DNA of 64,000 nucleotides from Candidatus Bathyarchaeota archaeon (GTDB lineage Archaea; Thermoproteota; Bathyarchaeia; 40CM-2-53-6): the NCBI GenBank assembly GCA_963726255.1, contig CAVSBL010000002.1:1856001-1920000 (forward strand). The letters run 5' to 3'. Each line of letters starts with the position of its first letter. Position 1 is the first letter of the stretch. Position numbers and translations under genes: made by a program. Below, one piece after another: positions 34,475 to 49,011 of this stretch. The notes below the pieces were generated by a model that saw nothing but the letters and a program-made list of their open reading frames with translations, ran no database searches and was not told where the DNA came from.

Positions 34475-35209
34475 CTACTTTTCGAGAGTGACTTCGAAAT
34501 TCTCGCCGACCTTTAGTCCATGCCAACGTCTATCAACCCCGACATTCCGCGTGTTCCTGACTCGCATAAGGTCTCGCGGGGGGTCGCTAGTCTCATCAAG
34601 TCTGAAGTCTACCACGATCTCACATGCCCCTTCCAATCTCTTGTAGGCCCAGTCGCTGAGCACTCCTTTCATTACTCCGGCGACATAGACCATCTTACGT
34701 ATTCCCGCGATCGGAAGAAACCGAGTTAGCTCCAACTCCACCCAAGCTCTTTCGTCGTTAAACCGGGCAAATAATGAATCGTCATCGATAATCATCAGAT
34801 GTTCTGGGTTTGGGGTTCGCCGCATATCTTCCCGGGACATGATGAGGCTGATGTCTGCAACTTTCAAGGAATCCCAATGGTACTTTTCCTTTGATTTCTG
34901 GCCAAGCGAGATCGTGTACGCGTCGAAGATCTGCAGTCTCTCATATTCAGCATCTACGAACGTGTTCTCAAGTTGAGATGCATCCAGCCCGAGACGCTTG
35001 AGCTGTGAGCGCACCTGGTCAGGTGGTTGGGTTCCCGCCTCATAGTGAACACTTCTGTTTTCTGTGCTCTTCAACCAACCAGCTGCGATCGTAACGGAAG
35101 CGTTGAACCATTGCGAGGCCGGATCATACTCTACCAGAATGTTAGATCCTGCAGGCACTGGCCCAGAAGTTAGATCCTCAATTATCGGAATTCGTGTCAA
35201 AGCTGCCAT
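34475..35209 (-). CDS. Degenerate KaiC/RAD55-like ATPase-fold protein (no intact Walker A)
   Basis: TRIPIIEDLTSGPVPAGSNILVEYDPASQ in place of GxPGxGKT; C-terminal VVDFR..R.MRVR. Confidence 0.75.
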   Translation of the reverse strand: MAALTRIPIIEDLTSGPVPAGSNILVEYDPASQWFNASVTIAAGWLKSTENRSVHYEAGTQPPDQVRSQLKRLGLDASQLENTFVDAEYERLQIFDAYTISLGQKSKEKYHWDSLKVADISLIMSREDMRRTPNPEHLMIIDDDSLFARFNDERAWVELELTRFLPIAGIRKMVYVAGVMKGVLSDWAYKRLEGACEIVVDFRLDETSDPPRDLMRVRNTRNVGVDRRWHGLKVGENFEVTLEK

Positions 35210-35467
35210 TGAGGAAGTGTGAGATGTACATTGTAGGTTTTTCTGTGTGTGGGTCAACTGGTGCGAATGTCCGATTTTGCGCTCCTCTTTTTGTGCGTAT
35301 CAGTGTTGCGGTAGAACAAATTTGAACTTTCAAATTTCGTGATCATAATGGAAATCGGAAAATGAGGCCACCCAGAAGTTTATCTTCAAAGTTAGCGAAT
35401 AGATGTTCGGTGTGAGATTTGACAGAGATTCCTTCGAAAGACGAAAGTACGCCCCCAGGTTCGCGGA

Positions 35468-35727: not shown

Positions 35728-37347
35728 TCATTCTGGAGGTACTTCTTTGTGAAGCAGGTCTAGGTCGATTCCGGCGCGCTTGCGATATGACCGGGCAAGG
35801 TAGTAGATCACCACGCCCGCTGCATATATTCCAACTACGAATCCCGTTGAGTATGGTCCTACGGGTCCTGAGAATGCTGGCAGTGCGAAGGACGAGTAGA
35901 GAATGAGGCTGAACAGGATTACACTGATCAATCCAGAGATGCTGATCAGGGGGATTCCAGCAATCTTCTTCTTGACGAGTTCTGGTGCGGCGTCAAACAT
36001 GTCCTTTCTTACGTAGGGGAATAGTAGGGCAGAGACACCCGTTATCCAGAAGCATACCGAGAAAATGACCGTGTAGTTCACTACGTAAGTGAAGAATGGT
36101 GTGAACACGTACAATGTCATCAGTACCCAAGCGACGAATGCGATGGTTACGCTGGCCACCCAAGGTTGTCCCGATTTGCTTACGGCCGCGAGCTTCTCAG
36201 GTATCACGCGGTCGAAGGACCATGCGAAGACGTTTCTGACACAGATGGTCATCATCACAATTAGTAGCAAGAACGTCCAAAGGAAGAAGCTAGCTCCTAT
36301 CAGAGCGTTAGCCAGTGGATTTCCTGCCAGTATGCCCGCGAAGAAGTTCACTACGGGGGGTACAGGGATTGGGTTAGCTGAGGGGTTATTGAGATTGAGA
36401 TAAGCTATTGCGTCGTTGAACTTCGCGCCTACAACGTTGTAGTATAGAGCGAAAGTGACCGCGTAGAACACGAAGCCAAAGAGCAATGAGAACAGAATTG
36501 CCTTGTTCTGGTTCTTCTGCGGTTCCTTTACCTCTCCACCGATGTACACAGAGTACGTGAACCCTATGTACACCCAGTATCCGATTGGGATTGAGAGAAG
36601 TGTAGCAATCAGCGAGGGGGCGGGTACGGAATACCCTTGGGTTGTGGCTGTTGAGATTATCGAATTGTAGGCATCCGGGAGATTCGTTGTCTTGAGCATG
36701 AAGGCATTGAAAATCTGGATGAACTGCGCATTATTGTAGGATAAGAATACGATTAATGTTGCGAAGGAGCCTACCGTAGCGATGACCATCCCGTAGGTCA
36801 ATATTCTTCGAACCAATCGGGTTGGCATTAGTAATATGACCGTAACCACGGCCATCACTATCGTGCCGACGACCCAAGTATAGGTTGGCGTCGCGATAAG
36901 ACTGCCGAATGTGATCATGCCTGCATCTGCAGTTTGATATCCTAATGTCAGTATTGCTGAAGCGAGTGCATAGTTCGTGATCCATGCCGTGTAGATTCCG
37001 ATTCCTAGGAATTGTGACCACGTGAAGCCCCAGTTGGACATGAACCCAATCGCTGGATGAAGTATCCTGCCGTTATAGACGTAGTCTCCGCCAGAGCGGG
37101 GCATAGCTCCGGCAAGCAAACCGTAGCACAGACCGTTGAAGACCGTCAGGATTGTTCCGATGATGAGCATACCGAAAATGTTTGCTCCTGGGAACAGGCC
37201 ACCCACGAACAGCGGCGTGACCATTATCACGAGGCCCAGAGCGAAGCCGAGGGTGTTGAAAGCAAAAGCATCGAAGAGGCCGAATTCTCTTGTTAGACCC
37301 GAAGCGCGTCGTACGAACATTTCAGGTCTTTTGTGACTTTCTGACAA
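35728..37347 (-). CDS. APC family amino acid/polyamine permease, copy 1
   Basis: FVRRASGLTREFG, MPRSGGDYV, GGEVKEP, FAWSFDRVIP; ~14 TM. Confidence 0.9.
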   Translation of the reverse strand: MSESHKRPEMFVRRASGLTREFGLFDAFAFNTLGFALGLVIMVTPLFVGGLFPGANIFGMLIIGTILTVFNGLCYGLLAGAMPRSGGDYVYNGRILHPAIGFMSNWGFTWSQFLGIGIYTAWITNYALASAILTLGYQTADAGMITFGSLIATPTYTWVVGTIVMAVVTVILLMPTRLVRRILTYGMVIATVGSFATLIVFLSYNNAQFIQIFNAFMLKTTNLPDAYNSIISTATTQGYSVPAPSLIATLLSIPIGYWVYIGFTYSVYIGGEVKEPQKNQNKAILFSLLFGFVFYAVTFALYYNVVGAKFNDAIAYLNLNNPSANPIPVPPVVNFFAGILAGNPLANALIGASFFLWTFLLLIVMMTICVRNVFAWSFDRVIPEKLAAVSKSGQPWVASVTIAFVAWVLMTLYVFTPFFTYVVNYTVIFSVCFWITGVSALLFPYVRKDMFDAAPELVKKKIAGIPLISISGLISVILFSLILYSSFALPAFSGPVGPYSTGFVVGIYAAGVVIYYLARSYRKRAGIDLDLLHKEVPPE

Positions 37348-37485
37348 TTTTCCTCGAGGCTACTGAACAGTGTTCGGATATATGCCTTGTCATATGTTGG
37401 CGAATATAGATTTGCAGTAACAGTAACTTCACACAATTTATAAGTTCCCCTACAGCCGCACGTAGCAAGCGGCGCTGTTACGAAC

Positions 37486-38430
37486 ATGAAGATTTTCTTC
37501 ACATCAGACGTTCACGGATCCGAGAAGACGTTCATGAAGTTCTTGAACTCGGGGAAGTTCTACAAAGCAGACGTACAAATCCTGGGAGGAGACATCACAG
37601 GTAAAGTTGTGATACCCATCTTCGCGGAAGCAAATGGGAAGTATCAAGTTCACTTTCAGGGTGGAGATTACACACTCACCCAAGAGGATGAAGTCTTGAG
37701 CATGGAGAAGCAGATTCGCGACGCCGGATTCTACAGCTTTAGAGCGAGACCTGAGGAAGTTGAGAAAATCAATACCTCCCCAGCAGAGAAGAATGCACTC
37801 TTCGAAAAACTCATGGTCGAACGACTCACGAGATGGATGCAAATCGCGGATGAAAGACTTAGTGGAACGAACATTCAGTGCTATGTCATGGCTGGCAATG
37901 ATGACGCGCACATAGTGGACTCAGTTCTGAATGGTGCGAAAGCAGTTATCAACCCGGAGGGGAAAGTGGTGGAGGTCACTGATCATTTGGAGATGGTCAG
38001 CTCAGGATATAGTAACATGACGCCGTGGAAGTGCCCTAGAGACGTATCTGAAGAGGAACTCGCGAAAAGGATTGAGGACATGGCGTCCAAGGTTAAAGAT
38101 TTCTCGAAATGTATCTTTAACCTCCACTGCCCTCCCTATGGCACAAACATTGACCAAGCGCCTTTGCTTGATGAGAAGCTTTCACCTAAGATGGGACCGT
38201 CCGGTATGCAGATGGAGCCTGTGGGGAGTAAAGCGGTGAAGAACGCGATAGAGAAGTATCAACCACTGTTGGGTTTGCACGGACACATACATGAATCTCG
38301 CGGCGTTTGCAAGATCAATAAGACACTCTGCATAAATCCTGGTAGTGAGTATGGAGAGGGTATTCTGCGTGGCGCTTTGATTAGCATAAAGAACGATCGA
38401 GTTGAAAGTTACAGTTTCACCTCTGGTTAA
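37486..38430 (+). CDS. Calcineurin-like metallophosphoesterase (Icc-related), copy 1
   Basis: SDVHG, GGDITG, GNDD, HCPP, GLHGHIHE, NPGSEY. Confidence 0.9.
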   Translation: MKIFFTSDVHGSEKTFMKFLNSGKFYKADVQILGGDITGKVVIPIFAEANGKYQVHFQGGDYTLTQEDEVLSMEKQIRDAGFYSFRARPEEVEKINTSPAEKNALFEKLMVERLTRWMQIADERLSGTNIQCYVMAGNDDAHIVDSVLNGAKAVINPEGKVVEVTDHLEMVSSGYSNMTPWKCPRDVSEEELAKRIEDMASKVKDFSKCIFNLHCPPYGTNIDQAPLLDEKLSPKMGPSGMQMEPVGSKAVKNAIEKYQPLLGLHGHIHESRGVCKINKTLCINPGSEYGEGILRGALISIKNDRVESYSFTSG

Positions 38431-38433
38431 CCA

Positions 38434-39210
38434 TTGAAGGTTATCTGCTTGTACATTGCTTCCCCTTTCGAGCAGCAGCTCTTTGATGAAGGTAAGAGAA
38501 TTCTCGATACGGCACGCGACAGAGGCATTGTACTCCGACTTCTTGGAGCGTTAGCCATCAGAACGCACTGTCCCGAGTTTTCGTACATACATGAGAAAGC
38601 AGGTAGAACGCTTTCAGACCTCGACATGGCCGCTTACCAAAAGCAGGGCCCAGAGATATCGCGCTTCTTCAAGGATGTAGGTTATAGGCACTCGGCATTG
38701 GCTGCAATTCCCGGCTTGAAAAGGGCCGTTTTTCTTGGCGACGGGGAATTGCACGTCGACATATTCTATGAAGGTTTAGAGATGTGCCACGATATTTCCT
38801 TCAAGGATAGATTGGAGGTGGATTACCCAACCATCCCTTTGGCGGAACTCCTCCTTGAAAAGATGCAGATCGTTCAGATTAACGAAAAGGATCTCATCGA
38901 CACGATAATGCTCCTAAGAGAGCATCAAATTAGTGACAACGACAAGGAGGCCGTGAATGGACCTAGGATAGCCAGCCTATGTGCAGCCGAGTGGGGGCTG
39001 TGGAGAACTATCACTATGAACCTGGGCAAAGTCACTAATTACGCCAAGTCTTTCGCCGCTATCCAAGACGAAGACAAGAGGGACGTCACAGAGAAAATCG
39101 ACCAACTGCTGAAAATGATCGAGGACGAACCGAAGACGTTCAAGTGGAAGATGAGAGCGAAAGTAGGCGATAGCAGGGTCTGGTACAAGACAGTCGAGGA
39201 ACGAGCATAA
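38434..39210 (+). CDS. Putative Pol-beta superfamily nucleotidyltransferase, copy 1
   Basis: LRLLGALAI...SDLD, HVDIF, LLLEKMQ..NEKDLID. Confidence 0.7.
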   Translation: MKVICLYIASPFEQQLFDEGKRILDTARDRGIVLRLLGALAIRTHCPEFSYIHEKAGRTLSDLDMAAYQKQGPEISRFFKDVGYRHSALAAIPGLKRAVFLGDGELHVDIFYEGLEMCHDISFKDRLEVDYPTIPLAELLLEKMQIVQINEKDLIDTIMLLREHQISDNDKEAVNGPRIASLCAAEWGLWRTITMNLGKVTNYAKSFAAIQDEDKRDVTEKIDQLLKMIEDEPKTFKWKMRAKVGDSRVWYKTVEERA

Positions 39211-39266
39211 GCTTCGTCGTCCAAATCATTGTAATCTGTCTTCCAGCATTGAAAATGCGCGCAGTG

Positions 39267-40127
39267 CTATCTTGGGCCTGACCCTTTCTCCAGAAGCATC
39301 TTGTAGAGCTCCGGTCGCCGATTATGGAAGTAATTGTAGGTTTCCCTCTCTCGATGTGCCTGTTCTAAATCAACCTCGGCGAGGAACATTTTCTCTCCTT
39401 GATCGGCGCTGGCTATGATCTCTCCCTGTGTCCCAATGATGCGGCTCATACCGTAGAAGTGGCTCTTCAGGTCCGGGTCGTCGCCGACTCTGTTGCATAC
39501 AGCAACCACAAGCCTATTCTCCAACGCGCGAGCGCGGAAACTAAGTTCGAACACTCTCTCTGGAAGCCCAGGGACACCTTCTGGCCAGTCAGCGACAAGA
39601 TGGAAGATTACCTCGGCACCCTTGAGAGCAAGTATCCTGGCTGTTTCGGGGAACTCAAGGTCGTAGCATATCAGGAGTCCCACCGTTCCAAAGTCGGTTT
39701 TGTAAACTGGTAATTCTTCGCCTCGCGTGAAGATGCTCTCGGTCGGAGGATACGTGTGCGACTTTCTGTAGTTGCCTAAGATCCCGCCTAGCCTATCAAT
39801 CAACACCGCAGAATCGAATAGTGTGCCGCCGGTCGATCTCTCGGCGAGCCCAACAATAACGTACACCTTGTTCTCTGCAGCTTTCTTGGCAACCGCCTCA
39901 ATTGTCGGTCCTGGAACCGATTCTGCTACATTCCTGAACCGCTCACCGAGCGCGTACCCTGCAGAGAGGATGAGTTCGGGAAACAGGACCACATCGGCGC
40001 GCTCAGCAGCTGCCTTGTCAATCCAGTCACAAACCTTGGAGAGTGTACTCTTAACATTCCCATAGACAACGTCCATTTGCACGCATGCTATCTTCACTTT
40101 ACGATTTGTAGTCTTCAATTTTGTCAC
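39267..40127 (-). CDS. Carbon-nitrogen hydrolase (nitrilase/N-carbamoyl amidase family)
   Basis: E-K-C triad: FPEL, YRKSH, ICYDLEFPE. Confidence 0.92.
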   Translation of the reverse strand: MTKLKTTNRKVKIACVQMDVVYGNVKSTLSKVCDWIDKAAAERADVVLFPELILSAGYALGERFRNVAESVPGPTIEAVAKKAAENKVYVIVGLAERSTGGTLFDSAVLIDRLGGILGNYRKSHTYPPTESIFTRGEELPVYKTDFGTVGLLICYDLEFPETARILALKGAEVIFHLVADWPEGVPGLPERVFELSFRARALENRLVVAVCNRVGDDPDLKSHFYGMSRIIGTQGEIIASADQGEKMFLAEVDLEQAHRERETYNYFHNRRPELYKMLLEKGSGPR

Positions 40128-40128
40128 T

Positions 40129-41445
40129 CTACCGGTCAGTTCCGCACCATTCTGTAACCGCGACGCAGAGAATTTTCGCCGTCTTCACTATTGAATCGAT
40201 TGAAACGAACTCGTCGACGACGTGAGCTTGTTCTGTAGGTCCGGGTCCTAAGGCGATTGAGGGAATCTGCAGCAGGTTCATGAGGTGGGCCCCGTCGTCC
40301 CATGAGTCTAAGGCGGAGATTCGCGCTTTTACGGAAACTGCGTCAGCAGCGGACATAACATTACGGACTAGTGGATGATCACGTTCCACTTCCATGGGGG
40401 GAAGGTCCATTATCCACTCGATTCGGGCAGGGTGTTCTGCCAGCCAACTGTCCGCTTGACAAGAACGGGCAAGATGTTCTTCGATTTCTCTCTTGACTTT
40501 GGTTCCATAGCCTTTCTCATCGCGATCGGCGGGAAGGTATTGAATGTCCATCTCCATCTCGCACTTGTCAGGTATCGTCGCCCAGAAGTCGCCTGACTTG
40601 ATTATTGTTGGCATTATTCTGGGTGCGGATAACAACTCGTGTTTCTTCGCGGACCTTTTAGTCCAATCCGCCTCTAAGGTTCGAAATGCGTCGAGAACTA
40701 TGGATGCCTTCTCGATCGCGTTGACTGCTCCCCCCTCGCTCCAGTGTGGGTGGTTCAGTTCCGCATGACCAGCCCGCCCATCAACAATCGCCCTCGCCCA
40801 GAGCAGACCTCTGGTCGCAATCCAGAGGTTCAAATTGCTGGGCTCTGGGATTATCGCAGCGTCAGCCTTGTAGCCTCGATCAATGCAGGCGACTGTACCC
40901 ATTCCATTGATTTCCTCGTCAAGGACGGTTTCTATGATCAAGTCGCCCTTCAGTTTCAACTTGGAACTGCTAATCACTTTCGCGGTGGCGATTATTGCTG
41001 CTGCTCCAGCTTTCATGTCGCAAGAACCGCGGCCAAAGATCTTACCATCCTTGACTTCTCCTCCCCATGGATCATGTTTCCATTTTGACGCGTGGTCGGC
41101 TGGTACGACGTCGATGTGTGCGTTGAGGATTAGTGAACGGCCGTCCCCAGAGCCTTTGAGTGTGGCTGCGAGCATGGGCCTCTTGTTGAAATTTTGTCCC
41201 TTGATGTAGAACGGGTGGTGTGATAACTTGTTGATGTCGGGTTCCCAAAGGTCTACTTTGAATCCGAGCTCTTTGAGTTCTTCAGCGACGTATTCTTGGC
41301 ATTGTTTATCATCGAATGCTGCCTGCCCAGGGTTGGGTGAGGTTGTGTTGAACTTTACTAGGTCGCTGGTGAGCTTAACGATTTGGTCGGTCCTTTTCTC
41401 AACGGCGTTTAGTAGCGTCTTTGTTTCATCTTGCAAGTGAAACAT
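40129..41445 (-). CDS. ArgE/DapE family deacylase (M20A)
   Basis: NAHIDVVP, GRGSCDMKAG, DEEING.G, AHVVDE. Confidence 0.9.
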   Translation of the reverse strand: MFHLQDETKTLLNAVEKRTDQIVKLTSDLVKFNTTSPNPGQAAFDDKQCQEYVAEELKELGFKVDLWEPDINKLSHHPFYIKGQNFNKRPMLAATLKGSGDGRSLILNAHIDVVPADHASKWKHDPWGGEVKDGKIFGRGSCDMKAGAAAIIATAKVISSSKLKLKGDLIIETVLDEEINGMGTVACIDRGYKADAAIIPEPSNLNLWIATRGLLWARAIVDGRAGHAELNHPHWSEGGAVNAIEKASIVLDAFRTLEADWTKRSAKKHELLSAPRIMPTIIKSGDFWATIPDKCEMEMDIQYLPADRDEKGYGTKVKREIEEHLARSCQADSWLAEHPARIEWIMDLPPMEVERDHPLVRNVMSAADAVSVKARISALDSWDDGAHLMNLLQIPSIALGPGPTEQAHVVDEFVSIDSIVKTAKILCVAVTEWCGTDR

Positions 41446-41453
41446 TCAACCGT

Positions 41454-42800
41454 CTAAGCTATGGCCTTGAGGGCTTGCTCTGCAGCGGTAACGGCTTTCT
41501 GAACGTCTTCCGTTGTGTGCTCTGTACATACGAAAAGGTGCTCGTACTGTTGTGGGTGGAAGTAGATCCCTCTTTTGAGGAGCTCCTTGTGAAATCGTAG
41601 ATATTTCTCGGAGTCAGTGCTGAAGAAGTCTCGATAGTTTCGAATCTTCTTCATCTTTGTGAAGTATAGTTGGCAGCCGCCAGCTCCTACGCCTTGCACA
41701 ATTCCATCTGTTCGCGTCTTCTCCACCGCGCCCTGCAAGCCGTCCTGGAGCATCCTGCCCACCCTATGCATGTGTTTGTAGGCTGCACCGTCGTTCTTGG
41801 TAAGTTCAGTTAAAGCGGTGTATGCCGCGGCGACGCAGAGCGGATTTGCATTGAAGGTTCCGGCATGCATTATCTTCCCGGGTACGACTTGTTCCATGAT
41901 CTCTTTCACGCCCGTTATTGCTGAAATTGGAAACCCTGCGCCCAAAGCCTTCGCGAATGTTGCAAGGCCGGGTTCAAGACCGAAGTATTCTTGGGCTCCG
42001 CCTGGGGCCAATCTGAAGCCGCTGATGACTTCATCGAGGATGAAGACAACATCGTATTTTTCGCAAAGTTCCTGCAGTCCCTTCAGGTAACCTTTCTCTG
42101 GAAGGACGGTTCCAATGTTCATCAGGATAGGTTCGGTTATTATTGCAGCGATCTCATGTGCCCTTCTCTTCAGTGTCTTTTCGACCACTGAGAGGTCGTT
42201 CCATGGCAGAAGGATGACGGTGCGAGCAGTCTCTTCGGGTATACCCCACGTCGCAGCGATCTTGAAGGGTGCAATTGAGGATCCGAGTGAAGGGGTCCCT
42301 AGACCCCCCAGCAATACATAATCATGAGCTCCGTGGTAACAACCTTCGAATTTGATGATCTTGTCTTTTCCGGTGTAGCCTCGTGCAATCCTGATCGCAT
42401 GCATGGTCGCCTCTGCGCCAGAGTTCGAGAACCTAACCATATCTGCGTTTGGGACAATTTCGCAGACCTTCTCGGCCAGTTTGACTTCCGTCTCGTTGAG
42501 TACCGCGAAAGCTGTACCCTTTTCCAATTGTGCACGAACAGCTTCCATCAATTTGGGATGGCAGTGGCCGAGGATACATGGTCCCATAGATAGGATGAAA
42601 TCGATGTATTGGTTTCCGTCTGCGTCCCAAATCTTTGACCCTTTCCCCCTCTCGAAGGTTAGTGGATAGGGATCGAAGACAGGGTAACATTGACCGTGTG
42701 AGCTGGCCCCGCCGGGCATTACCTTGAGCGCCCTTTGGTAGAGGTTCCATGACTTGCGCGTTGTCAGGCCAGGAGTGTATTCAACATAGGAGTTAGGCAT
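41454..42800 (-). CDS. Class III PLP aminotransferase (glutamate-1-semialdehyde aminomutase-like)
   Basis: NSGAEAT, FEGCYHG, DEVISGFR, AKALGAGFP, HAGTFNANP. Confidence 0.9.
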   Translation of the reverse strand: MPNSYVEYTPGLTTRKSWNLYQRALKVMPGGASSHGQCYPVFDPYPLTFERGKGSKIWDADGNQYIDFILSMGPCILGHCHPKLMEAVRAQLEKGTAFAVLNETEVKLAEKVCEIVPNADMVRFSNSGAEATMHAIRIARGYTGKDKIIKFEGCYHGAHDYVLLGGLGTPSLGSSIAPFKIAATWGIPEETARTVILLPWNDLSVVEKTLKRRAHEIAAIITEPILMNIGTVLPEKGYLKGLQELCEKYDVVFILDEVISGFRLAPGGAQEYFGLEPGLATFAKALGAGFPISAITGVKEIMEQVVPGKIMHAGTFNANPLCVAAAYTALTELTKNDGAAYKHMHRVGRMLQDGLQGAVEKTRTDGIVQGVGAGGCQLYFTKMKKIRNYRDFFSTDSEKYLRFHKELLKRGIYFHPQQYEHLFVCTEHTTEDVQKAVTAAEQALKAIA

Positions 42801-43034
42801 CGATCATTCCTCTTCTCAAGATTAGTGAGTGTGCCCATTCACACTATGGATATTTATTACGTTCGAGCAACTGCCCGAGGCCAGACTTTTGGCGTACAGA
42901 GTACCTATTCGAGAGTAGGCCTCACTGACCACTCGTCACTTTGTCCGTGGATAGAATCAAGGGTCATAATCCGACAAGAAGTTAAACTATCACGCGGAAA
43001 TTCTGGATCGAGTGACTAAGGAGCGCTCGTTTTA

Positions 43035-44006
43035 GTGAATACCACACTCACGGCGGTTGAGGGGTTAAGGGTCGGACATGCCCAAGACAAATCTACGCCG
43101 ACCGGTTGCACCGTGATTCTATTCGAGCCCGAAGCTGACGTCGCGTGCGAAGCACGCGGTGGATGGCCGGGAACCTACGATACGCATTCAATAGACGTGA
43201 CCAAGACCTTCGTCAAGAAACACGCCGTATTCCTTACGGGGGGTGACGTATTTGGATTTGACACGGCGATCGGGATAAGGCGGTATTTGATTGAGCGCGG
43301 TTTAGCTTCTGCCACGGGAGTTGGCAAGCTCCCTGGCATCGTGGGAGCAAACATCTACGACCTACCCATCGCTACAGTCGACAAAGTCCGATACCCCGAT
43401 TTAGGGTACCTAGCATGCATGAATGCTTCAAGGGAACCAGTTGGAGAGGGCAATATTGGTGCGGGAGTAGGCGGGACAGTGGGAAAACTCAAAGGCATCG
43501 AATTTGCCTGCAAAGGCGGATGCGGCACAACCGCAATGGCTCTGCGTAACGAAATTGTTGTGGCTGCAATAGTCGTCACAAATGCGTATGGGAACGTATA
43601 CGACATTGAAACAGGGAAGACCATAGCCGGCACCAGAAAAACCGACCGAGGTTTCATCGAATTCGACGAAGCAATCGCTGATTACCTGAATGACCATGCT
43701 CCACACCATACTACGATTGGTCTCGTTGCAACCAATATTGACTTGTCTCACGAGCAATTGATCAAGGTCGCACAGATGGCTCATGATGGGCTGGCAATGT
43801 CGATCAGGCCCGTGCACATGTCAACCGACGGTGATACTATGTTCGCTGCCTCCACGGCTAAAGTGAGGGGATTACGTGATCTAGACCGAATTGTTGACAT
43901 TGTAGGGTATGCTGGAGCCCAATGCGTCGCTAAATCGGTCGTCAGAAGCGTAAAGGCAGCACAAACATTGGCCAATGTCCCTGGCTGGAGCGACACACCG
44001 AAATAG
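43035..44006 (+). CDS. DmpA/P1 (S58) family aminopeptidase
   Basis: GLRVGHA, GCTV, RGGWPGT, EGNIGAGVG, TTIG, AHDGLA..IRP.H...DGD. Confidence 0.88.
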   Translation: MNTTLTAVEGLRVGHAQDKSTPTGCTVILFEPEADVACEARGGWPGTYDTHSIDVTKTFVKKHAVFLTGGDVFGFDTAIGIRRYLIERGLASATGVGKLPGIVGANIYDLPIATVDKVRYPDLGYLACMNASREPVGEGNIGAGVGGTVGKLKGIEFACKGGCGTTAMALRNEIVVAAIVVTNAYGNVYDIETGKTIAGTRKTDRGFIEFDEAIADYLNDHAPHHTTIGLVATNIDLSHEQLIKVAQMAHDGLAMSIRPVHMSTDGDTMFAASTAKVRGLRDLDRIVDIVGYAGAQCVAKSVVRSVKAAQTLANVPGWSDTPK

Positions 44007-44220
44007 AAACTTCAACATATCTCGCAATCTGTAACCAGCGATCATCGAGCACACCCCCAGAGTGACCAGCTCACCCAAGAGCTTATTCCTGCTCCAGTCG
44101 CTCGCAGATTCCTTCTTGTTGTATGCGCCAAGTCGATCTGAACCGTCCGCGGAGTTACTTAGAACAGCCGATTTTGACTGCCCCGTAAAGAAAGTAAGGG
44201 TCTTGTTCTGAATAGAGCCC

Positions 44221-44493
44221 ATGAGCAGACGTAAGGATGATGCGTTTTACCTTTACTTCATAGTCAGATCAATATTGATGGGTTTGCTGGGGGCGCTGAT
44301 ATTCTCAGTTATCATATGGCTCCTCAACACTTCCAAATTACTCTACGTCCTCTCTATCTCCGCCGGAAGCTTCTTCATCGTAATGTTCCTCACTCGAGTA
44401 TTCGATAATCAGATACGGAGTTTAGTTAACAAAATCCTTGAGAAATTAGATAAGTGGCCCCGAGCGAAGGATTTCCTCTTGAGGCATTTCTAA
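44221..44493 (+). CDS. Small 2-TM membrane protein
   Basis: ATG ORF with two hydrophobic helices. Confidence 0.6.
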   Translation: MSRRKDDAFYLYFIVRSILMGLLGALIFSVIIWLLNTSKLLYVLSISAGSFFIVMFLTRVFDNQIRSLVNKILEKLDKWPRAKDFLLRHF

Positions 44494-44603
44494 CAAGTCT
44501 CATTGTTTAGAGGCGTTTCTTGTAATCGCCTCGAAACGTAAGAAAAAAGAAAGGAAGCGGGGAGGTTCAGCCGTCGTAGTTTTGGTTTGCGCTCGGGATG
44601 AGG

Positions 44604-46208
44604 TTATACTGGTGGGATTTCGTGGAATGCGAGTTCAATGTCCAGTCCGTGTTTCTTGTGGTAGTAGACGCTTGCATAGTAGACTATGATGCATCCGACG
44701 ACGATTGCAAGAGCGATTCCTGCTCCAGTCAGTGTTGGAACGACAATCAGTGGGTTGATCAATGCTAAGTAGCCTATGTAGAAGAATGATATGGTTGTCA
44801 ACAGCCCTAGTATGCTAATGATGGGCACGCTGCCTACTTTCTTCCTCATCCAGCCAGGAGCCGAATCTAGCAGATCTTTCTTTGTGAATGGGAATATTGT
44901 TGTGGCAATCCCTGGAACGACGAAACAGAACGCCCAAAGGAATGTGCCTATGGTTTCAGCAGTAGGCCATGATGTGAACCAGTATAGGGCAAAGATGAGT
45001 ATTGACATCAACGTTATGGTAATTATGGAGACGTGCGGCGTTCTGAATCGCTTGCTCACATCGGCCATCTTTGTGGGGATGATTCGGTCAAATGACCATG
45101 CGAAGAAGTACCTGCTTGGGATCCAGAAGTAAACGAATGGGGCGGTAAGGGAACCCGCTAGCATTGTGAATAGGACCAAGAAGACTAGAAACTGGTTCGG
45201 GTAGGCGATTAGGGAAACCATCATGGGATAGGTCGGTGCGTAGGGCATTACACCAGAGTAGGCGGAGGGGGCGTTGTCCCATAGGTAGCCCACCGAGTAC
45301 ATCCAGTTCTCGCCTAGGTTGTTCAACGTCAATGCCGCGGTGACACTCCATATCACTATGCCGAGGATTAACGAAAGTAGCAATGCAATTGGGATGGCGC
45401 GTTTGACGTTTTTCACTTCACCTGCAACTACGTTGGCGAAGTTTCCTCCGAGGAGGAACAGAGCGGCGAAGGGAGCGCTAGCTATAGAGGCGGCCAGGGT
45501 GATGGTTGGGGGTGACCATCCAGATTGGGTTGCCAGTTTTGTCAATCCTCCGTAGGTTGAGAACTGGCCTAGGACAGTGTCCCATTTGGCTGCAAAGGCT
45601 GTTGGGTTCGTTGAACCTACGAAGCTCCACATCACGACGATTCCTATGACGGCTAGGGCCCATGCTACGTAGAGGAAGCCTCTCACAGCTTTGGCTCCGA
45701 CGATGGCGAGGGTTGCGAAGCACACAGTAATTAGAACTGAAAGTCCGAACCCTCCCACCGGACTACTGAGAAATGTGCCTAGGCTGATCAATCCCTGCGA
45801 ATTGTAGAGGAAGCCCCAGATTGTCAACGCTGTTGAAATGCCGGATGCGTAGGCGGCTGTGCCGCCGACGTATGCCGTGGCGAAGACTGAGAACATGTAG
45901 AGGAAGGACCAAGCGAAGCCTATGGCCGGATGCATAATTCTTGCAACCCAGACGTAGTCGTTGCCGGACCTGGGCATTATGACGCCCATAGCCCAGTAGA
46001 TCACCATCAACAGGACGAATGGGATGCCGGTTATGACGAGGGCCAATGGAAGGTTCGCGCCAGGGTTGAAGCCGTAATACCATGGGAATTGGAGGATTGT
46101 GTAGGTGAGGGCGAAAACGGCGGCTGATGCAATTAACAAAGTGTCGAGTGTTCCGAATTCTCTGACTAAACCACTTGACGTTCTTGCGAAGAAGGTCTTT
46201 TGAGCCAT
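44604..46208 (-). CDS. APC family amino acid/polyamine permease, copy 2
   Basis: FARTSSGLVREFG, MPRSGNDYV, AGEVKN, FAWSFDRIIP. Confidence 0.9.
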   Translation of the reverse strand: MAQKTFFARTSSGLVREFGTLDTLLIASAAVFALTYTILQFPWYYGFNPGANLPLALVITGIPFVLLMVIYWAMGVIMPRSGNDYVWVARIMHPAIGFAWSFLYMFSVFATAYVGGTAAYASGISTALTIWGFLYNSQGLISLGTFLSSPVGGFGLSVLITVCFATLAIVGAKAVRGFLYVAWALAVIGIVVMWSFVGSTNPTAFAAKWDTVLGQFSTYGGLTKLATQSGWSPPTITLAASIASAPFAALFLLGGNFANVVAGEVKNVKRAIPIALLLSLILGIVIWSVTAALTLNNLGENWMYSVGYLWDNAPSAYSGVMPYAPTYPMMVSLIAYPNQFLVFLVLFTMLAGSLTAPFVYFWIPSRYFFAWSFDRIIPTKMADVSKRFRTPHVSIITITLMSILIFALYWFTSWPTAETIGTFLWAFCFVVPGIATTIFPFTKKDLLDSAPGWMRKKVGSVPIISILGLLTTISFFYIGYLALINPLIVVPTLTGAGIALAIVVGCIIVYYASVYYHKKHGLDIELAFHEIPPV

Positions 46209-46361
46209 TACATGATCACATCTTGTTTGCAGATTTTCAGTCCATCACTTGAACTAGTCAGGATATAAGATATTCCAAACAAGAACCATCCTTGGAAAAA
46301 GGGTAACACTCGGTAGCAAAGGATAATTGGTGCACGGGCAAACCGCTGGCGGCGCCTATTC

Positions 46362-47141
46362 TTGGAAAATCGAAGCGGCCTCTCAGACTTCTTCAAAGAT
46401 GCTTTGATGATAATTGAGGCCGCGAAGCAGAAACAAATCGAGTTGAGGTTGATGGGTGCAACGGCCATTTACTACCGTTGCCCAAACTCAAGAAACTTGA
46501 CTGGGGCAATGAGTAGGGCACTTACCGATTTAGATTTCATGACGCTGTCCAAGTATGTGAGGCATATTCCTGATTTGTTTGCAAGTCTCGGCTTCGAAGG
46601 GAATGAGCGAGTAAATGCCCTATACGGGCTGAGGCGCCAAATCTACGCTGACCCGAAAAATGCAAGGCACATCGATGTGTTCGTTGACAAACTTACTTTC
46701 TGCCACCAACTCGACCTAACCCGCAGATTGGAGTTGGACCCGGTCACACTATCGTTGGCTGATCTTCTCCTGGAGAAGATGCAAATCGTGAAGATCGGAG
46801 AGAAAGACGTGAAAGACACAATCATACTCCTTCGGGAACACGAACTAGGTGACAGTGACAATGGGAGAATAAACATGGACTACGTAGCAAAACTGTTGGC
46901 GGACGATTGGGGATTCTATTACACCGTGACAACCAACCTAAAGAAAACAAAGGACTATGCGAACAGCCTCACAGTCCTTAGCCAAGAGGACCGCAAGCTG
47001 GTGGGCAGCAAGATAGATATGCTCCTGGATAAAATCGAGCGAGAAGGCAAGTCATTCAAGTGGAAGATGCGCGCAAAGGCTGGCACCAAGGTACAATGGT
47101 ATAGCGACGCCGAGGATGTTGAAAACAGAGCCGCGACCTGA
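46362..47141 (+). CDS. Putative Pol-beta superfamily nucleotidyltransferase, copy 2
   Basis: LRLMGATAI...TDLD, HIDVF, LLLEKMQ..GEKDVKD, KWKMRAK; clear paralog of 38434. Confidence 0.7.
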   Translation: MENRSGLSDFFKDALMIIEAAKQKQIELRLMGATAIYYRCPNSRNLTGAMSRALTDLDFMTLSKYVRHIPDLFASLGFEGNERVNALYGLRRQIYADPKNARHIDVFVDKLTFCHQLDLTRRLELDPVTLSLADLLLEKMQIVKIGEKDVKDTIILLREHELGDSDNGRINMDYVAKLLADDWGFYYTVTTNLKKTKDYANSLTVLSQEDRKLVGSKIDMLLDKIEREGKSFKWKMRAKAGTKVQWYSDAEDVENRAAT

Positions 47142-47160
47142 TTAATCAGAATGAAGTTCG

Positions 47161-48111
47161 ATGCCAACTAAAATATTCTTCGCGACCGACCTGCATGGGT
47201 CGGAGAAGTGCTTTCTGAAGTTCGTTAACGCAGCCAAGTTCTACAAAGCAAACACCCTGATAATGGGTGGCGATATTACCGGGAAGATGATTATACCGAT
47301 CATTAAGGAGCCGAACGGTAAGTACCACGCAACATTCGTGGGAAACAAACGTACGGCGAAGAATGAAGAGGAGCTCCAGGATCTGCAAAGGGCGATACGG
47401 TTTGCTGGTTACTACCCTTATTTGACGAATCCTCAGCAGATGGAGCAGCTTCAGGCTGACGATTCGAGAGTGCAAGCGATTTTCAAAGAACTCATGTTGG
47501 ACACCGTGAAGAGATGGGTTCAACTCGCGGAAGCGCGTTTGAAGGAGTCTAACATAAGGGTGTACATTACCGGCGGGAACGATGACATAGCAGAAATCGA
47601 AAGCATCATCGGAAGTTCAAGCTACGTGATCGACCCTGAGGACAAGGTTGTAGAACTCGACGGGAAGTTTGAGATGATTAGTACAGGCTGGAGTAACCCG
47701 ACACCTTGGAAGACCGCACGCGAGTGCCCTGAAGATCAACTTTGGGCCAAGATAGAAAAGATGGCTGCCCAGGTCCAGAACATGAAGAACTGCATCTTCA
47801 ACTTGCATGTGCCGCCCATAGACTCCGGCCTCGACACATGCCCCAAACTAGATGAGAACCTCAAACCCGTTCTCGCGGGCGGAGAGATCGTGATGACCTC
47901 AGGTGGAAGCACTTCGGTTCGAAAGGCTATTGAGGTATACCAGCCATTGCTGGGTTTACACGGCCACATCCATGAATCCAAAGGATTCTTGAAAGTTGGT
48001 AGAACTCTCTGCCTCAACCCTGGAAGTGAATATGGCGAAGGGATTTTACGAGGTGCGCTAGTCGAATTGGATGATGGCTCAGTCAAGAACTTCCTGCTCA
48101 CACAAGGTTGA
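47161..48111 (+). CDS. Calcineurin-like metallophosphoesterase (Icc-related), copy 2
   Basis: TDLHG, GGDITG, GNDD, HVPP, GLHGHIHE, NPGSEY; paralog of 37486. Confidence 0.9.
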   Translation: MPTKIFFATDLHGSEKCFLKFVNAAKFYKANTLIMGGDITGKMIIPIIKEPNGKYHATFVGNKRTAKNEEELQDLQRAIRFAGYYPYLTNPQQMEQLQADDSRVQAIFKELMLDTVKRWVQLAEARLKESNIRVYITGGNDDIAEIESIIGSSSYVIDPEDKVVELDGKFEMISTGWSNPTPWKTARECPEDQLWAKIEKMAAQVQNMKNCIFNLHVPPIDSGLDTCPKLDENLKPVLAGGEIVMTSGGSTSVRKAIEVYQPLLGLHGHIHESKGFLKVGRTLCLNPGSEYGEGILRGALVELDDGSVKNFLLTQG

Positions 48112-48117
48112 CGAACT

Positions 48118-49011
48118 ATGAGCCCATTAGCGCGAGATTTCATCGGTTACGGCAAGAAAGTACCGAAGGTTCGATGGCCCAAAGGAGCAAGGCTCGCGTT
48201 AACCTTCGCCATCAATTATGAGGCTGGAGGCGAACACTCCGTCGCCTTCGGGGATCAGGGAGCCGAAACTTTCGGCGAGTTTCCCGCATACGGAACCCCG
48301 CCCAAGCGCGACCTAGCGATCGAATCCATCTTCGAATACGAGACCAGGGTCGCGATATGGAGAATCCTGCGGACGTTCGACAAATACAACACGAAAACTA
48401 CATTCTTTGCTACCGCGAAAACATTGGAAACCAACCCGGAGGCAGCTAGGGACATAGTTCAGAGAGGGCATGAGATATGCAGCCACGGTTACCGTTGGAT
48501 CGAACACTTTACACTAACCCGCGAAGAAGAGCGCGACGCCATTCGCAAGGCTGTAGCCTCAATTGAGAGCGTGACAGGACAGAGGCCTGTTGGCTGGTAT
48601 TGTAGGGAGCCCAGCGAGAACACGATTGAGCTTCTTGTCGAAGAGGGAGGATTTCTGTACGATTCAGACGTCTACAACGACGACTTCCCTTATTACGCAA
48701 ATGTCAACGGAGAACATTTCCTTCTGATCCCATACACGCCGGACGTGAACGACTTTCACTACTTCTCCAACAGATTCAGCAATTCCGAGGAGTTCTACCA
48801 ATATCTCAAAGATTCCTTCGACCAAATGTACGATGAGGGGCGTCAGAACCCTAAGATGATGAACGTAGGCTTGCACGTAAGAATATCAGGCAGAGCCGGG
48901 AGGACGGTTGCTGTCGGCAGATTTCTCAAATACGTTAACGCGAAGCCAAAGGTTTGGATAGCCCGTAGGGTTGACATCGCGAAATGGTGGCTTGAAAACC
49001 ACAAACCCTAG
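48118..49011 (+). CDS. PuuE-like allantoinase / polysaccharide deacetylase family
   Basis: RDFIGYG...WP.GAR, INYEAG, ES.FEY, SHGYRW, GWY, MMNVGLH.RISGR. Confidence 0.85.
   Translation: MSPLARDFIGYGKKVPKVRWPKGARLALTFAINYEAGGEHSVAFGDQGAETFGEFPAYGTPPKRDLAIESIFEYETRVAIWRILRTFDKYNTKTTFFATAKTLETNPEAARDIVQRGHEICSHGYRWIEHFTLTREEERDAIRKAVASIESVTGQRPVGWYCREPSENTIELLVEEGGFLYDSDVYNDDFPYYANVNGEHFLLIPYTPDVNDFHYFSNRFSNSEEFYQYLKDSFDQMYDEGRQNPKMMNVGLHVRISGRAGRTVAVGRFLKYVNAKPKVWIARRVDIAKWWLENHKP

Follow-up and report, generated by a model that had tools for sequence, protein, structure and literature searches.

The GlnD/PII (GlnK)/AmtB and GlnE/glutamine synthetase systems are nucleotidylyl switches, in which a Pol-beta-type transferase is matched by a removing activity, sometimes within the same polypeptide, and a membrane transporter for nitrogen compounds is tied to the former system. 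A module resembling them in these respects occurs twice in the stretch of DNA analyzed here (the window), which comprises 64,000 nucleotides (nt) from Candidatus Bathyarchaeota archaeon (assembly GCA_963726255.1, contig CAVSBL010000002.1, positions 1,856,001 to 1,920,000). The module consists of an APC permease, a predicted Pol-beta-fold nucleotidyltransferase (NT) and a metallophosphoesterase (MPE), the last two also being found as natural fusions. Unlike GlnD and GlnE, the removing enzyme would here be the MPE rather than an HD or a second NT domain, and unlike GlnD/PII/AmtB, the transporter is an APC permease rather than Amt; the homology shown does not extend past the superfamily fold, and a Pfam scan detected no PII gene or ACT domain near the window triads. 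NT and MPE probably act together in a function that is tied to this permease subfamily, and we tentatively read that function as a regulatory mark set either on the permease itself or on an immediate partner, with NT as the writer and MPE as the eraser.

A preliminary description of this DNA had reported the three gene types twice, each time as a permease divergent from a tightly spaced enzyme pair whose order is swapped between the copies, and all six open reading frames (ORFs) were found where it had placed them. The relevant features, with lengths in amino acids (aa), are as follows.

35728-37347, minus strand: APC1, ORF of 539 aa, an AA_permease_2 (PF13520) match at 85.5 bits with the conserved termini of the permease alignment
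37348-37485, no strand: 138-nt divergent intergenic region between APC1 and MPE1, in which both promoters are presumed to lie
37486-38430, plus strand: MPE1, ORF of 314 aa, a GNDD-type metallophosphoesterase
38434-39210, plus strand: NT1, ORF of 258 aa, predicted Pol-beta-fold nucleotidyltransferase of an uncurated family, start codon uncertain by a few codons
44604-46208, minus strand: APC2, ORF of 534 aa, PF13520 at 40 bits, of the same subfamily and with the same terminal motifs as APC1
46209-46361, no strand: 153-nt divergent intergenic region between APC2 and NT2
46362-47141, plus strand: NT2, ORF of 259 aa, with all invariant NT residues kept
47161-48111, plus strand: MPE2, ORF of 316 aa, a GNDD metallophosphoesterase included in the MPE alignment
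Start at 48118, 6 nt 3' of MPE2: PuuE-like deacetylase/allantoinase, TIGR03212 at E 4e-104, below the cut-off

In both copies the permease is divergent from the pair, which reads MPE1-NT1 in one and NT2-MPE2 in the other, with spacings of 3 and 19 nt, respectively. The paralogs are clearly diverged, as had been stated, the identities by BLASTP being 41% for NT1 and NT2 (E 6e-64), 48% for MPE1 and MPE2 (E 5e-120) and 30% for APC1 and APC2 (E 4e-65). The view of the module as duplicated holds in that there are two intact copies, but these are merely a small part of an approximately nine-fold expansion within the same genome; the linkage itself, which recurs about nine times in that genome and also across other genomes, goes far beyond chance. 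In the surroundings of the two window copies lie genes for an arginase-family enzyme, a CN-hydrolase, an M20 peptidase, a class-III aminotransferase, a DmpA/S58 peptidase and the PuuE-like deacetylase, a setting that is one of breakdown of nitrogen compounds. No riboswitch or other RNA family reached its gathering score within the window, and among 12 bacterial or archaeal loci a single tRNA was the sole RNA-family match.

The linkage was surveyed in one genome per species, using the best 80 of at least 549 NT relatives (590 pattern matches) and probing with the six proteins of the window flanks of at most 6 kb, many of which are cut by contig ends. All three genes were present at 51 of the 80 loci, MPE and NT at six, and NT alone within the flanks at 23; the five genomes of this last kind that were checked all have an MPE elsewhere, in two of them just past the fetched flank on the same contig. 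The loci come from Bathyarchaeia, Thermoprotei, Chloroflexota (mostly Anaerolineales), Caldisericota, Thermoleophilia, Actinomycetes, Methylomirabilota and Thermodesulfobacteriota. Gene order and strand are permuted between phyla, with APC-MPE-NT in Caldisericota, NT-MPE-APC in Thermoleophilia and Actinomycetes, several arrangements in Bathyarchaeia and, in Anaerolineales, APC, MPE and a DeoR gene on one strand facing NT, a CBS gene and a DMGDH-like gene on the other. Neighbors less than 300 nt apart were APC and MPE at 44 loci, MPE and NT at 20, and APC and NT at nine. The permease, NT and MPE form a real, ancient and widespread three-gene module, and the association of NT with this APC subfamily and with MPE, which the preliminary description had seen in a single window, is conserved across archaea and bacteria. 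A full-text literature search retrieved no paper that describes the combination.

Among 151 Thermoproteota genomes, NT was found in 20, MPE in 19 and the APC subfamily in 20 (the profiles of the last two each at E <=1e-40), and all three families were present in 19 genomes, none in 130 and one family in two, although these genomes are related and the counts are not independent. The two single-family genomes contain, respectively, an NT with an in-frame TAG and a weak APC match that lacks the N-terminal part. In the genomes of two families the three genes occur together, but with a single unlinked NT alongside several MPE and APC copies, which fits an NT that recognizes a feature common to all these permeases. 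In just one such case (genome G110, L115:6251-8717) the single unlinked NT immediately precedes a glutamine synthetase gene. A comparison across 24 triads from many genomes gave correlations for all three pairs of families (r 0.58-0.86), values that are confounded by shared phylogeny.

The genome that contains the window (2.42 Mb in five contigs, with an estimated contamination of 9.3%) holds 14 NT matches, 12 of them distinct, and phmmer found 13 MPE and 16 APC ORF matches; these make up about nine triads, besides which three or four NT genes and two APC genes stand alone. Beyond the window, their positions are as follows.

Contig C2, 820-826k, 918-922k, 1471-1480k, 1545-1549k, 2128-2132k, 2330-2333k and 2340-2342k: seven further triads
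Contig C2, about 901k, 1215k, 2075k and 2349k: solo NT genes

Copies of the triad at 2128-2132k also occur on the small contigs C1 and C5, and the assembly is therefore probably redundant there. The paralogs within the genome are deeply diverged, with identities that range from 32 to 65% for NT, from 37 to 59% for MPE and from 19 to 70% for APC, and the divergence of the MPE paralogs parallels that of the APC paralogs (Mantel r 0.52, p 0.027, 8 triads). Each triad stands in a different catabolic neighborhood, the genes nearby encoding histidine ammonia-lyase with enolase-superfamily and DHDPS-family enzymes; creatininase, a carbamoyltransferase, DUF1989 and an amidinotransferase; xanthine-dehydrogenase subunits, adenine deaminase and a nucleoside ABC system; or an Ntn hydrolase, a class-V aminotransferase and an M24 peptidase. 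The module thus attaches to many different nitrogen-compound pathways, and NT and MPE therefore appear to be generic companions of the permease rather than steps of a single pathway.

This diversity of settings bears directly on a rival explanation, possible although in our view doubtful, in which NT nucleotidylylates the imported small molecule in the manner of ANT(2'')-Ia or LnuA, or a group that the substrates have in common, and MPE cleaves the conjugate. Such tagging might serve metabolic trapping or activation, or might both make and break down a nucleotide-linked inducer that is sensed by DeoR and CBS proteins, which in the bacterial form of the module occur at 45 and 55 of the 80 loci, respectively; the usual ligands are sugar phosphates for DeoR regulators and adenosyl compounds for CBS domains. 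Against such tagging stands the observation that the roughly nine triads belong to different pathways (histidine/hydroxyproline-type, creatinine/guanidino, purine, and ureido/polyamine), and therefore one shared acceptor chemistry is not obvious. The proteins themselves are mildly acidic, with median isoelectric points (pI) of 6.0 for NT and 5.6 for MPE, which suits cationic amines better than RNA, and NT genes are found beside catabolic enzymes with no permease. Tagging sits less well with the single NT that accompanies several permease/MPE pairs in some genomes, and adding a nucleoside monophosphate (NMP) and then hydrolyzing it would be futile metabolism unless MPE cuts the other side of the phosphate. 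The antibiotic-resistance enzymes ANT(2'')-Ia and LnuA differ from NT, which is just 11-17% identical to them, exceeds them in length with its 255 aa or so and carries additional conserved Trp, Arg and Tyr residues in its C-terminal part; we know of no MPE or permease partner for either enzyme.

The two enzymes are also tied to each other by natural fusions. A search for long relatives of MPE1 (551-2000 aa) returned 15 proteins of 572-605 aa, and every one of them consists of a full-length NT at the N terminus and a full-length MPE at the C terminus, with NT residues Asp-62, Asp-64 and Asp-109 and the nine residues of the MPE motifs all retained in 15 of 15. That two intact enzymes are fused strongly indicates that both act on the same thing, and it lends independent support to the earlier suggestion that NT and MPE work as a pair. 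According to its source, one fusion is a Planctomycetota protein, and a single-ORF fusion, 80-83% identical to fusion P0277, is present on two of 80 related metagenome loci, at one of which an APC gene adjoins. At the remaining metagenome loci NT and MPE are abutting or overlapping genes, and APC was found at 41 of the 80. A word-based search for longer forms of NT found none, and the same fusions were recovered when starting from MPE; the blank is therefore a limit of that search. By their catalytic motifs NT and MPE are intact as enzymes, and the two belong together.

A synthetase-type and a hydrolase-type domain in one polypeptide, as seen in all 15 fusions, is a hallmark of messenger-turnover enzymes, and it raises the alternative that NT makes a nucleotide second messenger from nucleoside triphosphates (NTPs) alone and MPE degrades it, according to the logic of Rel/SpoT or of cyclase/phosphodiesterase pairs, with the CBS proteins or the permease termini as receptors. 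The adjoining CBS genes at 55 of the 80 loci and the genomes with one unlinked NT for many permeases would suit such a signal. We nevertheless consider it distinctly unlikely: the archaeal triads examined have no CBS gene, a dozen NT paralogs in one genome is odd for a diffusible signal, and NT stands apart from known messenger synthases, as no cGAS/DncV-like or RelA-type enzyme appears among the 50 structural matches listed for it.

The motifs named for NT, MPE and the permease in the preliminary description are real and conserved in alignments of 28, 24 and 27 sequences, respectively. In the NT alignment (A1), Gly-38, Ala-41, Asp-62 and Asp-64 are present in 28 of 28 sequences and Ala-39 in 27, and Arg-35, Arg-58, Asp-109, Cys-118, His-119, Arg-126, Glu-142, Lys-143, Lys-152, Asp-153 and Asp-156 are likewise invariant (n = 28), as are several C-terminal Trp, Arg and Tyr residues. 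The elements of the Pol-beta superfamily are thus all found, namely the core fold, the G turn, the D-x-D and a third acidic residue (Gly-38, Asp-62, Asp-64 and Asp-109, all 28/28). The AlphaFold model of NT is confident (pLDDT 90.3, pTM 0.89), and a Foldseek search with it returned MenT1 as the top significant match (E 5e-4), followed by other nucleotidyltransferases. Because the model is confident and every top match is a nucleotidyltransferase, NT is assigned by modeling to the Pol-beta fold, and within it to the "minimal NTase plus helical domain" group. Of the three outcomes that the preliminary description had named as refuting its idea, two were checked, and neither check spoke against it.

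At the level of sequence families NT goes unnamed. The Pfam scan (E <=0.01) returned nothing for NT1 or NT2, NCBIfam added nothing specific for the window proteins and a sequence search of the PDB with NT found nothing relevant. No window protein matches PF14907 (NTP_transf_5, gathering cut-off 31.2 bits); that model scores below the cut-off in two relatives (25.8 and 19.7 bits), and the domain is precomputed on one of 120 listed NT homologs and on 19% of one Atlas cluster. The family comprises 4183 proteins at E <=0.001 among 5325 candidates, and an exhaustive search gave 1995 clusters (50% identity), of which 397 reach E <=1e-30. All source names in the 120 listed homologs are "hypothetical protein", and the nearest named record to NT1, 97% identical, is from a Candidatus Bathyarchaeia genome. 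A 396-aa relative, P0135, has a MarR-type winged helix (about residues 18-67) fused to a full NT domain (151-394), which hints at a link to transcription control.

Like MenT1 and MenT3 (DUF1814/AbiEii), NT has a Pol-beta core followed by a helical C-terminal domain, and its R-x-x-[ST]-D-x-D and E-K...K-D-x-x-D loosely parallel the R-F-S-E-D-L-D and E-K...R-D-x-Y-D of AbiEii. Unlike them, NT is an acidic protein of chromosomal catabolic context whose partners are MPE and the permease and which has no antitoxin gene. The resemblance to AbiEii/MenT-type enzymes noted earlier stands for the fold and, loosely, for the motif, whereas membership by sequence does not: PF08843 (DUF1814/AbiEii) has no match in the whole genome with its 14 NT matches, and hhalign of the NT alignment against six archaeal AbiEii ORFs, a shallow alignment, gave a probability of 0.4%. 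No AbiEi/MenA-type antitoxin lies beside the NTs in the window, where the neighbors are the permease, MPE and catabolic enzymes. According to a report on MenT3, DUF1814 proteins have four motifs and are not all linked to an antitoxin (PMC7450476).

Two reports describe the addition of nucleotides to tRNA acceptor stems by MenT toxins (PMC7450476, PMC10435456). By analogy NT might extend or repair tRNA 3' ends, as MenT or CCA-adding enzymes do, while MPE trims or heals them, so that translation would be tied to the supply of amino compounds. This RNA-directed activity is very unlikely, even with MenT1 and MenT3 as the top structural matches, CCA-adding enzymes further down and an MPE that resembles nucleases such as Mre11 and SbcD, since it leaves the strict co-occurrence with one permease subfamily and the dozen or so paralogs per genome unexplained, both enzymes are acidic and NT is not a member of DUF1814 by sequence.

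A further feature of NT is the Ser or Thr that directly precedes Asp-62 and the Arg four residues before it, each in 28 of 28 sequences. MenT1 Thr-39 and MenT3 Ser-78, which stand two residues before the catalytic Asp, are reported to be auto-phosphorylated (PMC11375011). An NT that is turned off by auto-phosphorylation of this Ser/Thr beside the catalytic Asp and reactivated by MPE as a phosphatase would also account for an NT-MPE fusion, but the position is shifted by one residue relative to MenT, the window contains no inducer gene of the MenA or AbiEi kind and the permease has no part in the scheme, which we regard as highly improbable. The same likeness to MenT toxins could place the module with toxin-antitoxin or anti-phage defense systems of the AbiE/MenAT kind, and the MPEs do show a weak local match to the PADLOC candidate PDC-S10 (E 1e-9 and 5e-5). 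That assignment is barely credible, the constant partner being a permease and the neighbors being core catabolic genes that are syntenic across species, and it was rejected on the basis of the missing AbiEii Pfam match anywhere in the genome, the negative profile comparison and the finding that NT1 and NT2 match no PADLOC model.

The proposed eraser, MPE, was analyzed in an alignment of 24 sequences (A2), in which Asp-8, His-10, Asn-138, Asp-139 and Asp-140 (the GNDD motif), His-214, His-267 and His-269 are invariant and Asp-36 is conserved at >=90%. All five metal/catalytic motifs and the fold of the calcineurin-like superfamily were found, and the match to the Metallophos model PF00149 (cut-off 21.5) is 23.5 bits for MPE1 and a weak 17.9 bits for MPE2. 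Motif III of metallophosphoesterases is usually GNH[DE]; in contrast, Asp replaces His in 24 of 24 MPE sequences, so that GNDD is invariant in the family. The sole PDB profile match at E <0.001 is aq_1956, and MPE is of the aq_1956/TT1561 type. It shares the five-motif calcineurin-like core with aq_1956 (2YVT) and TT1561 (1UF3), proteins that have no assigned function (one entry is titled "hypothetical protein"), and more distantly with Mre11, MPPED2, Rv0805 and GpdQ, but the MPE family exceeds aq_1956 and TT1561 by about 60-85 aa and has an insert that separates motif II from motif III. One MPE of the genome (G000:C2:918027-918970, L093:7028-7971) is split into two ORFs, the profile match reading through two TGA codons, and is probably a pseudogene or an assembly error.

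The permease belongs to AA_permease_2 (PF13520, cut-off 27), which APC1 matches with 85.5 bits over residues 23-490 and APC2 with 40 bits over 18-486, and no NCBIfam equivalog comes near its cut-off for either protein. The alignment of 27 archaeal and bacterial sequences (A3) has an overall identity of just 20-30%, and conservation was found at the two cytoplasmic ends of the protein. At the N terminus Phe-11, Arg-13, Gly-17 and a Ser or Thr at position 16 are present in 27 of 27 sequences and Leu-18 in 26; at the C terminus the counts out of 27 are 26 for Gly-526, 23 for Asp-528, 27 for [FYH] at 533, 21 for Glu-535, 27 for Pro-537 and 17 for the terminal Glu. The subfamily motifs are F-x-R-[KR]-A-[ST]-G-L-x-[RK] at the N terminus and a C-terminal tail G-[IV]-D...[FY]-K-E-[IL]-P-P-E, with ...K-E-V-P-P-E in APC1. 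Four sister permeases that are unlinked to NT and MPE, one of them from a genome with neither enzyme, have an N terminus F-R-A-Y-L-L-R-R-E-F without the Ser/Thr-Gly, and their C-terminal ends differ. From the sequence comparison, the conserved termini fit a docking or modification site.

A mechanism can be proposed in which NT and MPE form an antagonistic pair acting on one phosphodiester bond. NT would use an NTP to place an NMP on a hydroxyl group, MPE would hydrolyze the NMP off again, and the mark would control the permease, so that the uptake of nitrogen-rich organic compounds would be switched by the nucleotide or nitrogen state of the cell, a version of the GlnD/PII/AmtB logic built from unrelated parts. 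The likeliest acceptor would be the invariant Ser/Thr of the permease N-terminal motif, or else an adaptor bound to the conserved termini. We favor this writer/eraser reading on account of, in order of weight, the fusions, the generic association with the permease, the permease termini with their invariant hydroxyl group and the occurrence of one NT with several permeases; we infer the use of an NTP, the acceptor, the reversal by MPE and the effect on transport. In its most specific form, with NT placing an NMP on the N-terminal Ser/Thr of the permease and the GNDD-type MPE removing it as a new control of secondary transporters in archaea and bacteria, the proposal must be called unlikely.

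Several observations weigh against a mark on the permease. The solved proteins most closely related to NT act on tRNA (MenT) or on small molecules (ANT, Lnu) and not on proteins, and GlnD and GlnE are not among the structural matches listed for NT. Within the genome of the window the NT paralogs do not co-diverge with either the permease or MPE (Mantel r -0.10 for both), and three or four solo NT genes lie beside catabolic enzymes. More widely, NT often adjoins catabolic or CBS genes instead of the permease: in Anaerolineales it is co-oriented with the CBS and DMGDH-like genes, while MPE and the permease are in a divergent DeoR operon, and in four Thermoproteota genomes the single NT has unrelated neighbors. 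The correlation of the Ser/Thr with linkage rests on four unlinked sister permeases from closely related genomes, and part of the N-terminal motif (F/L...R...L) presumably resembles the general APC N terminus. Co-folding of APC1 with MPE1, both supplied as alignments and without controls, gave scores of 0.29, 0.35 and 0.29 against a mark of 0.32, values that do not bear on binding either way.

Were the most specific form of the proposal true, the permease would be the first nucleotidylylated transporter, the MenT-like nucleotidyltransferase branch would have its first housekeeping (non-toxin) role and the aq_1956/TT1561-type phosphoesterases their first function. A switch on the permease would add a new control layer to the way in which abundant microbes of sediments and soils (Bathyarchaeia, Anaerolineales, Actinomycetota) take up organic nitrogen; substrate tagging or a messenger, if true, would likewise be new biochemistry. 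The NT family, for which there is no curated model or solved structure and of which the literature searches gave no description, is present in at least 549 stretches of species-representative genomes.

The Anaerolineales loci form an island (L008-L080, e.g. L014:1-12723) that is larger than the module. One strand carries a DMGDH-like gene (FAD oxidoreductase fused to GcvT), CBS, APC, MPE and DeoR, and the other NT, CBS and a second DMGDH-like gene with transaldolase-family, class-II aldolase and class-I/II aminotransferase genes; MttB-family and APH-type kinase genes are sometimes added. A literature search on the substrate of the island gave nothing useful, and the island resembles a pathway in which an N-methylated amine is processed in the form of phosphate esters.

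Other small genes accompany some triads. At 50-52 of the 80 metagenome loci two small ORFs with no Pfam family lie between MPE and a convergent permease, one encoding a soluble protein of about 160-176 aa and the other a protein of about 145 aa with two hydrophobic helices (e.g. L186:6691-7607 and L151:2872-3833, both minus strand). In triad T1 of the genome of the window both are present as one ORF of 325 aa (L091:9137-10114, minus strand, equal to C2:822136-823113), and the pair is possibly an accessory part of a sub-branch of the module. In the window, the ORF at 44221-44493 (plus strand, 90 aa), with two predicted membrane helices, is convergent with APC2; it has no similarity to the 325-aa ORF linked to T1, and it was rejected as a constant fourth gene, as it has no paralog in the genome and no small membrane ORF lies beside the other triads. 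The 260-aa ORF at 34475-35257 (minus strand) has no Pfam family and, in what we take to be its appearance, a KaiC/RecA-type fold without the P-loop. It has nine paralogs in the genome, just two of which are near triads, and it was ruled out as a constant fourth gene because the other seven are away from them.

Contigs from other libraries also align to the window. In a wetland metagenome DNA contig (run X4), position 38891 in NT1 is followed by 47770 in MPE2, a jump over 8878 bases; the shorter side of the junction is 32 letters at 90% likeness, and the contig may represent a one-module relative, paralog recombination or a chimera. Of the metatranscriptome contigs, all from one library (run X14, one study) at 90-99% likeness and of a kind that does not prove transcription, one stops at 37355, which lies 8 nt ahead of the APC1 start, and another at 46238, which lies 30 nt ahead of the APC2 start; both carry one and the same non-genomic tail, which presumably is a cDNA adapter. 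These ends are a weak hint at the mRNA 5' ends of APC1 and APC2; a third end with the same tail lies at 43596, inside the S58 peptidase gene, and one of the three tails is the reverse complement. The contigs cover APC1 (35764-36399 and 36455-37355), APC2 (45102-45915) and MPE2 (47302-47747 and 47749-48546), the last of these spanning the junction of MPE2 with the PuuE-like gene, and the junction of MPE1 with NT1 is covered by a contig of the same library.

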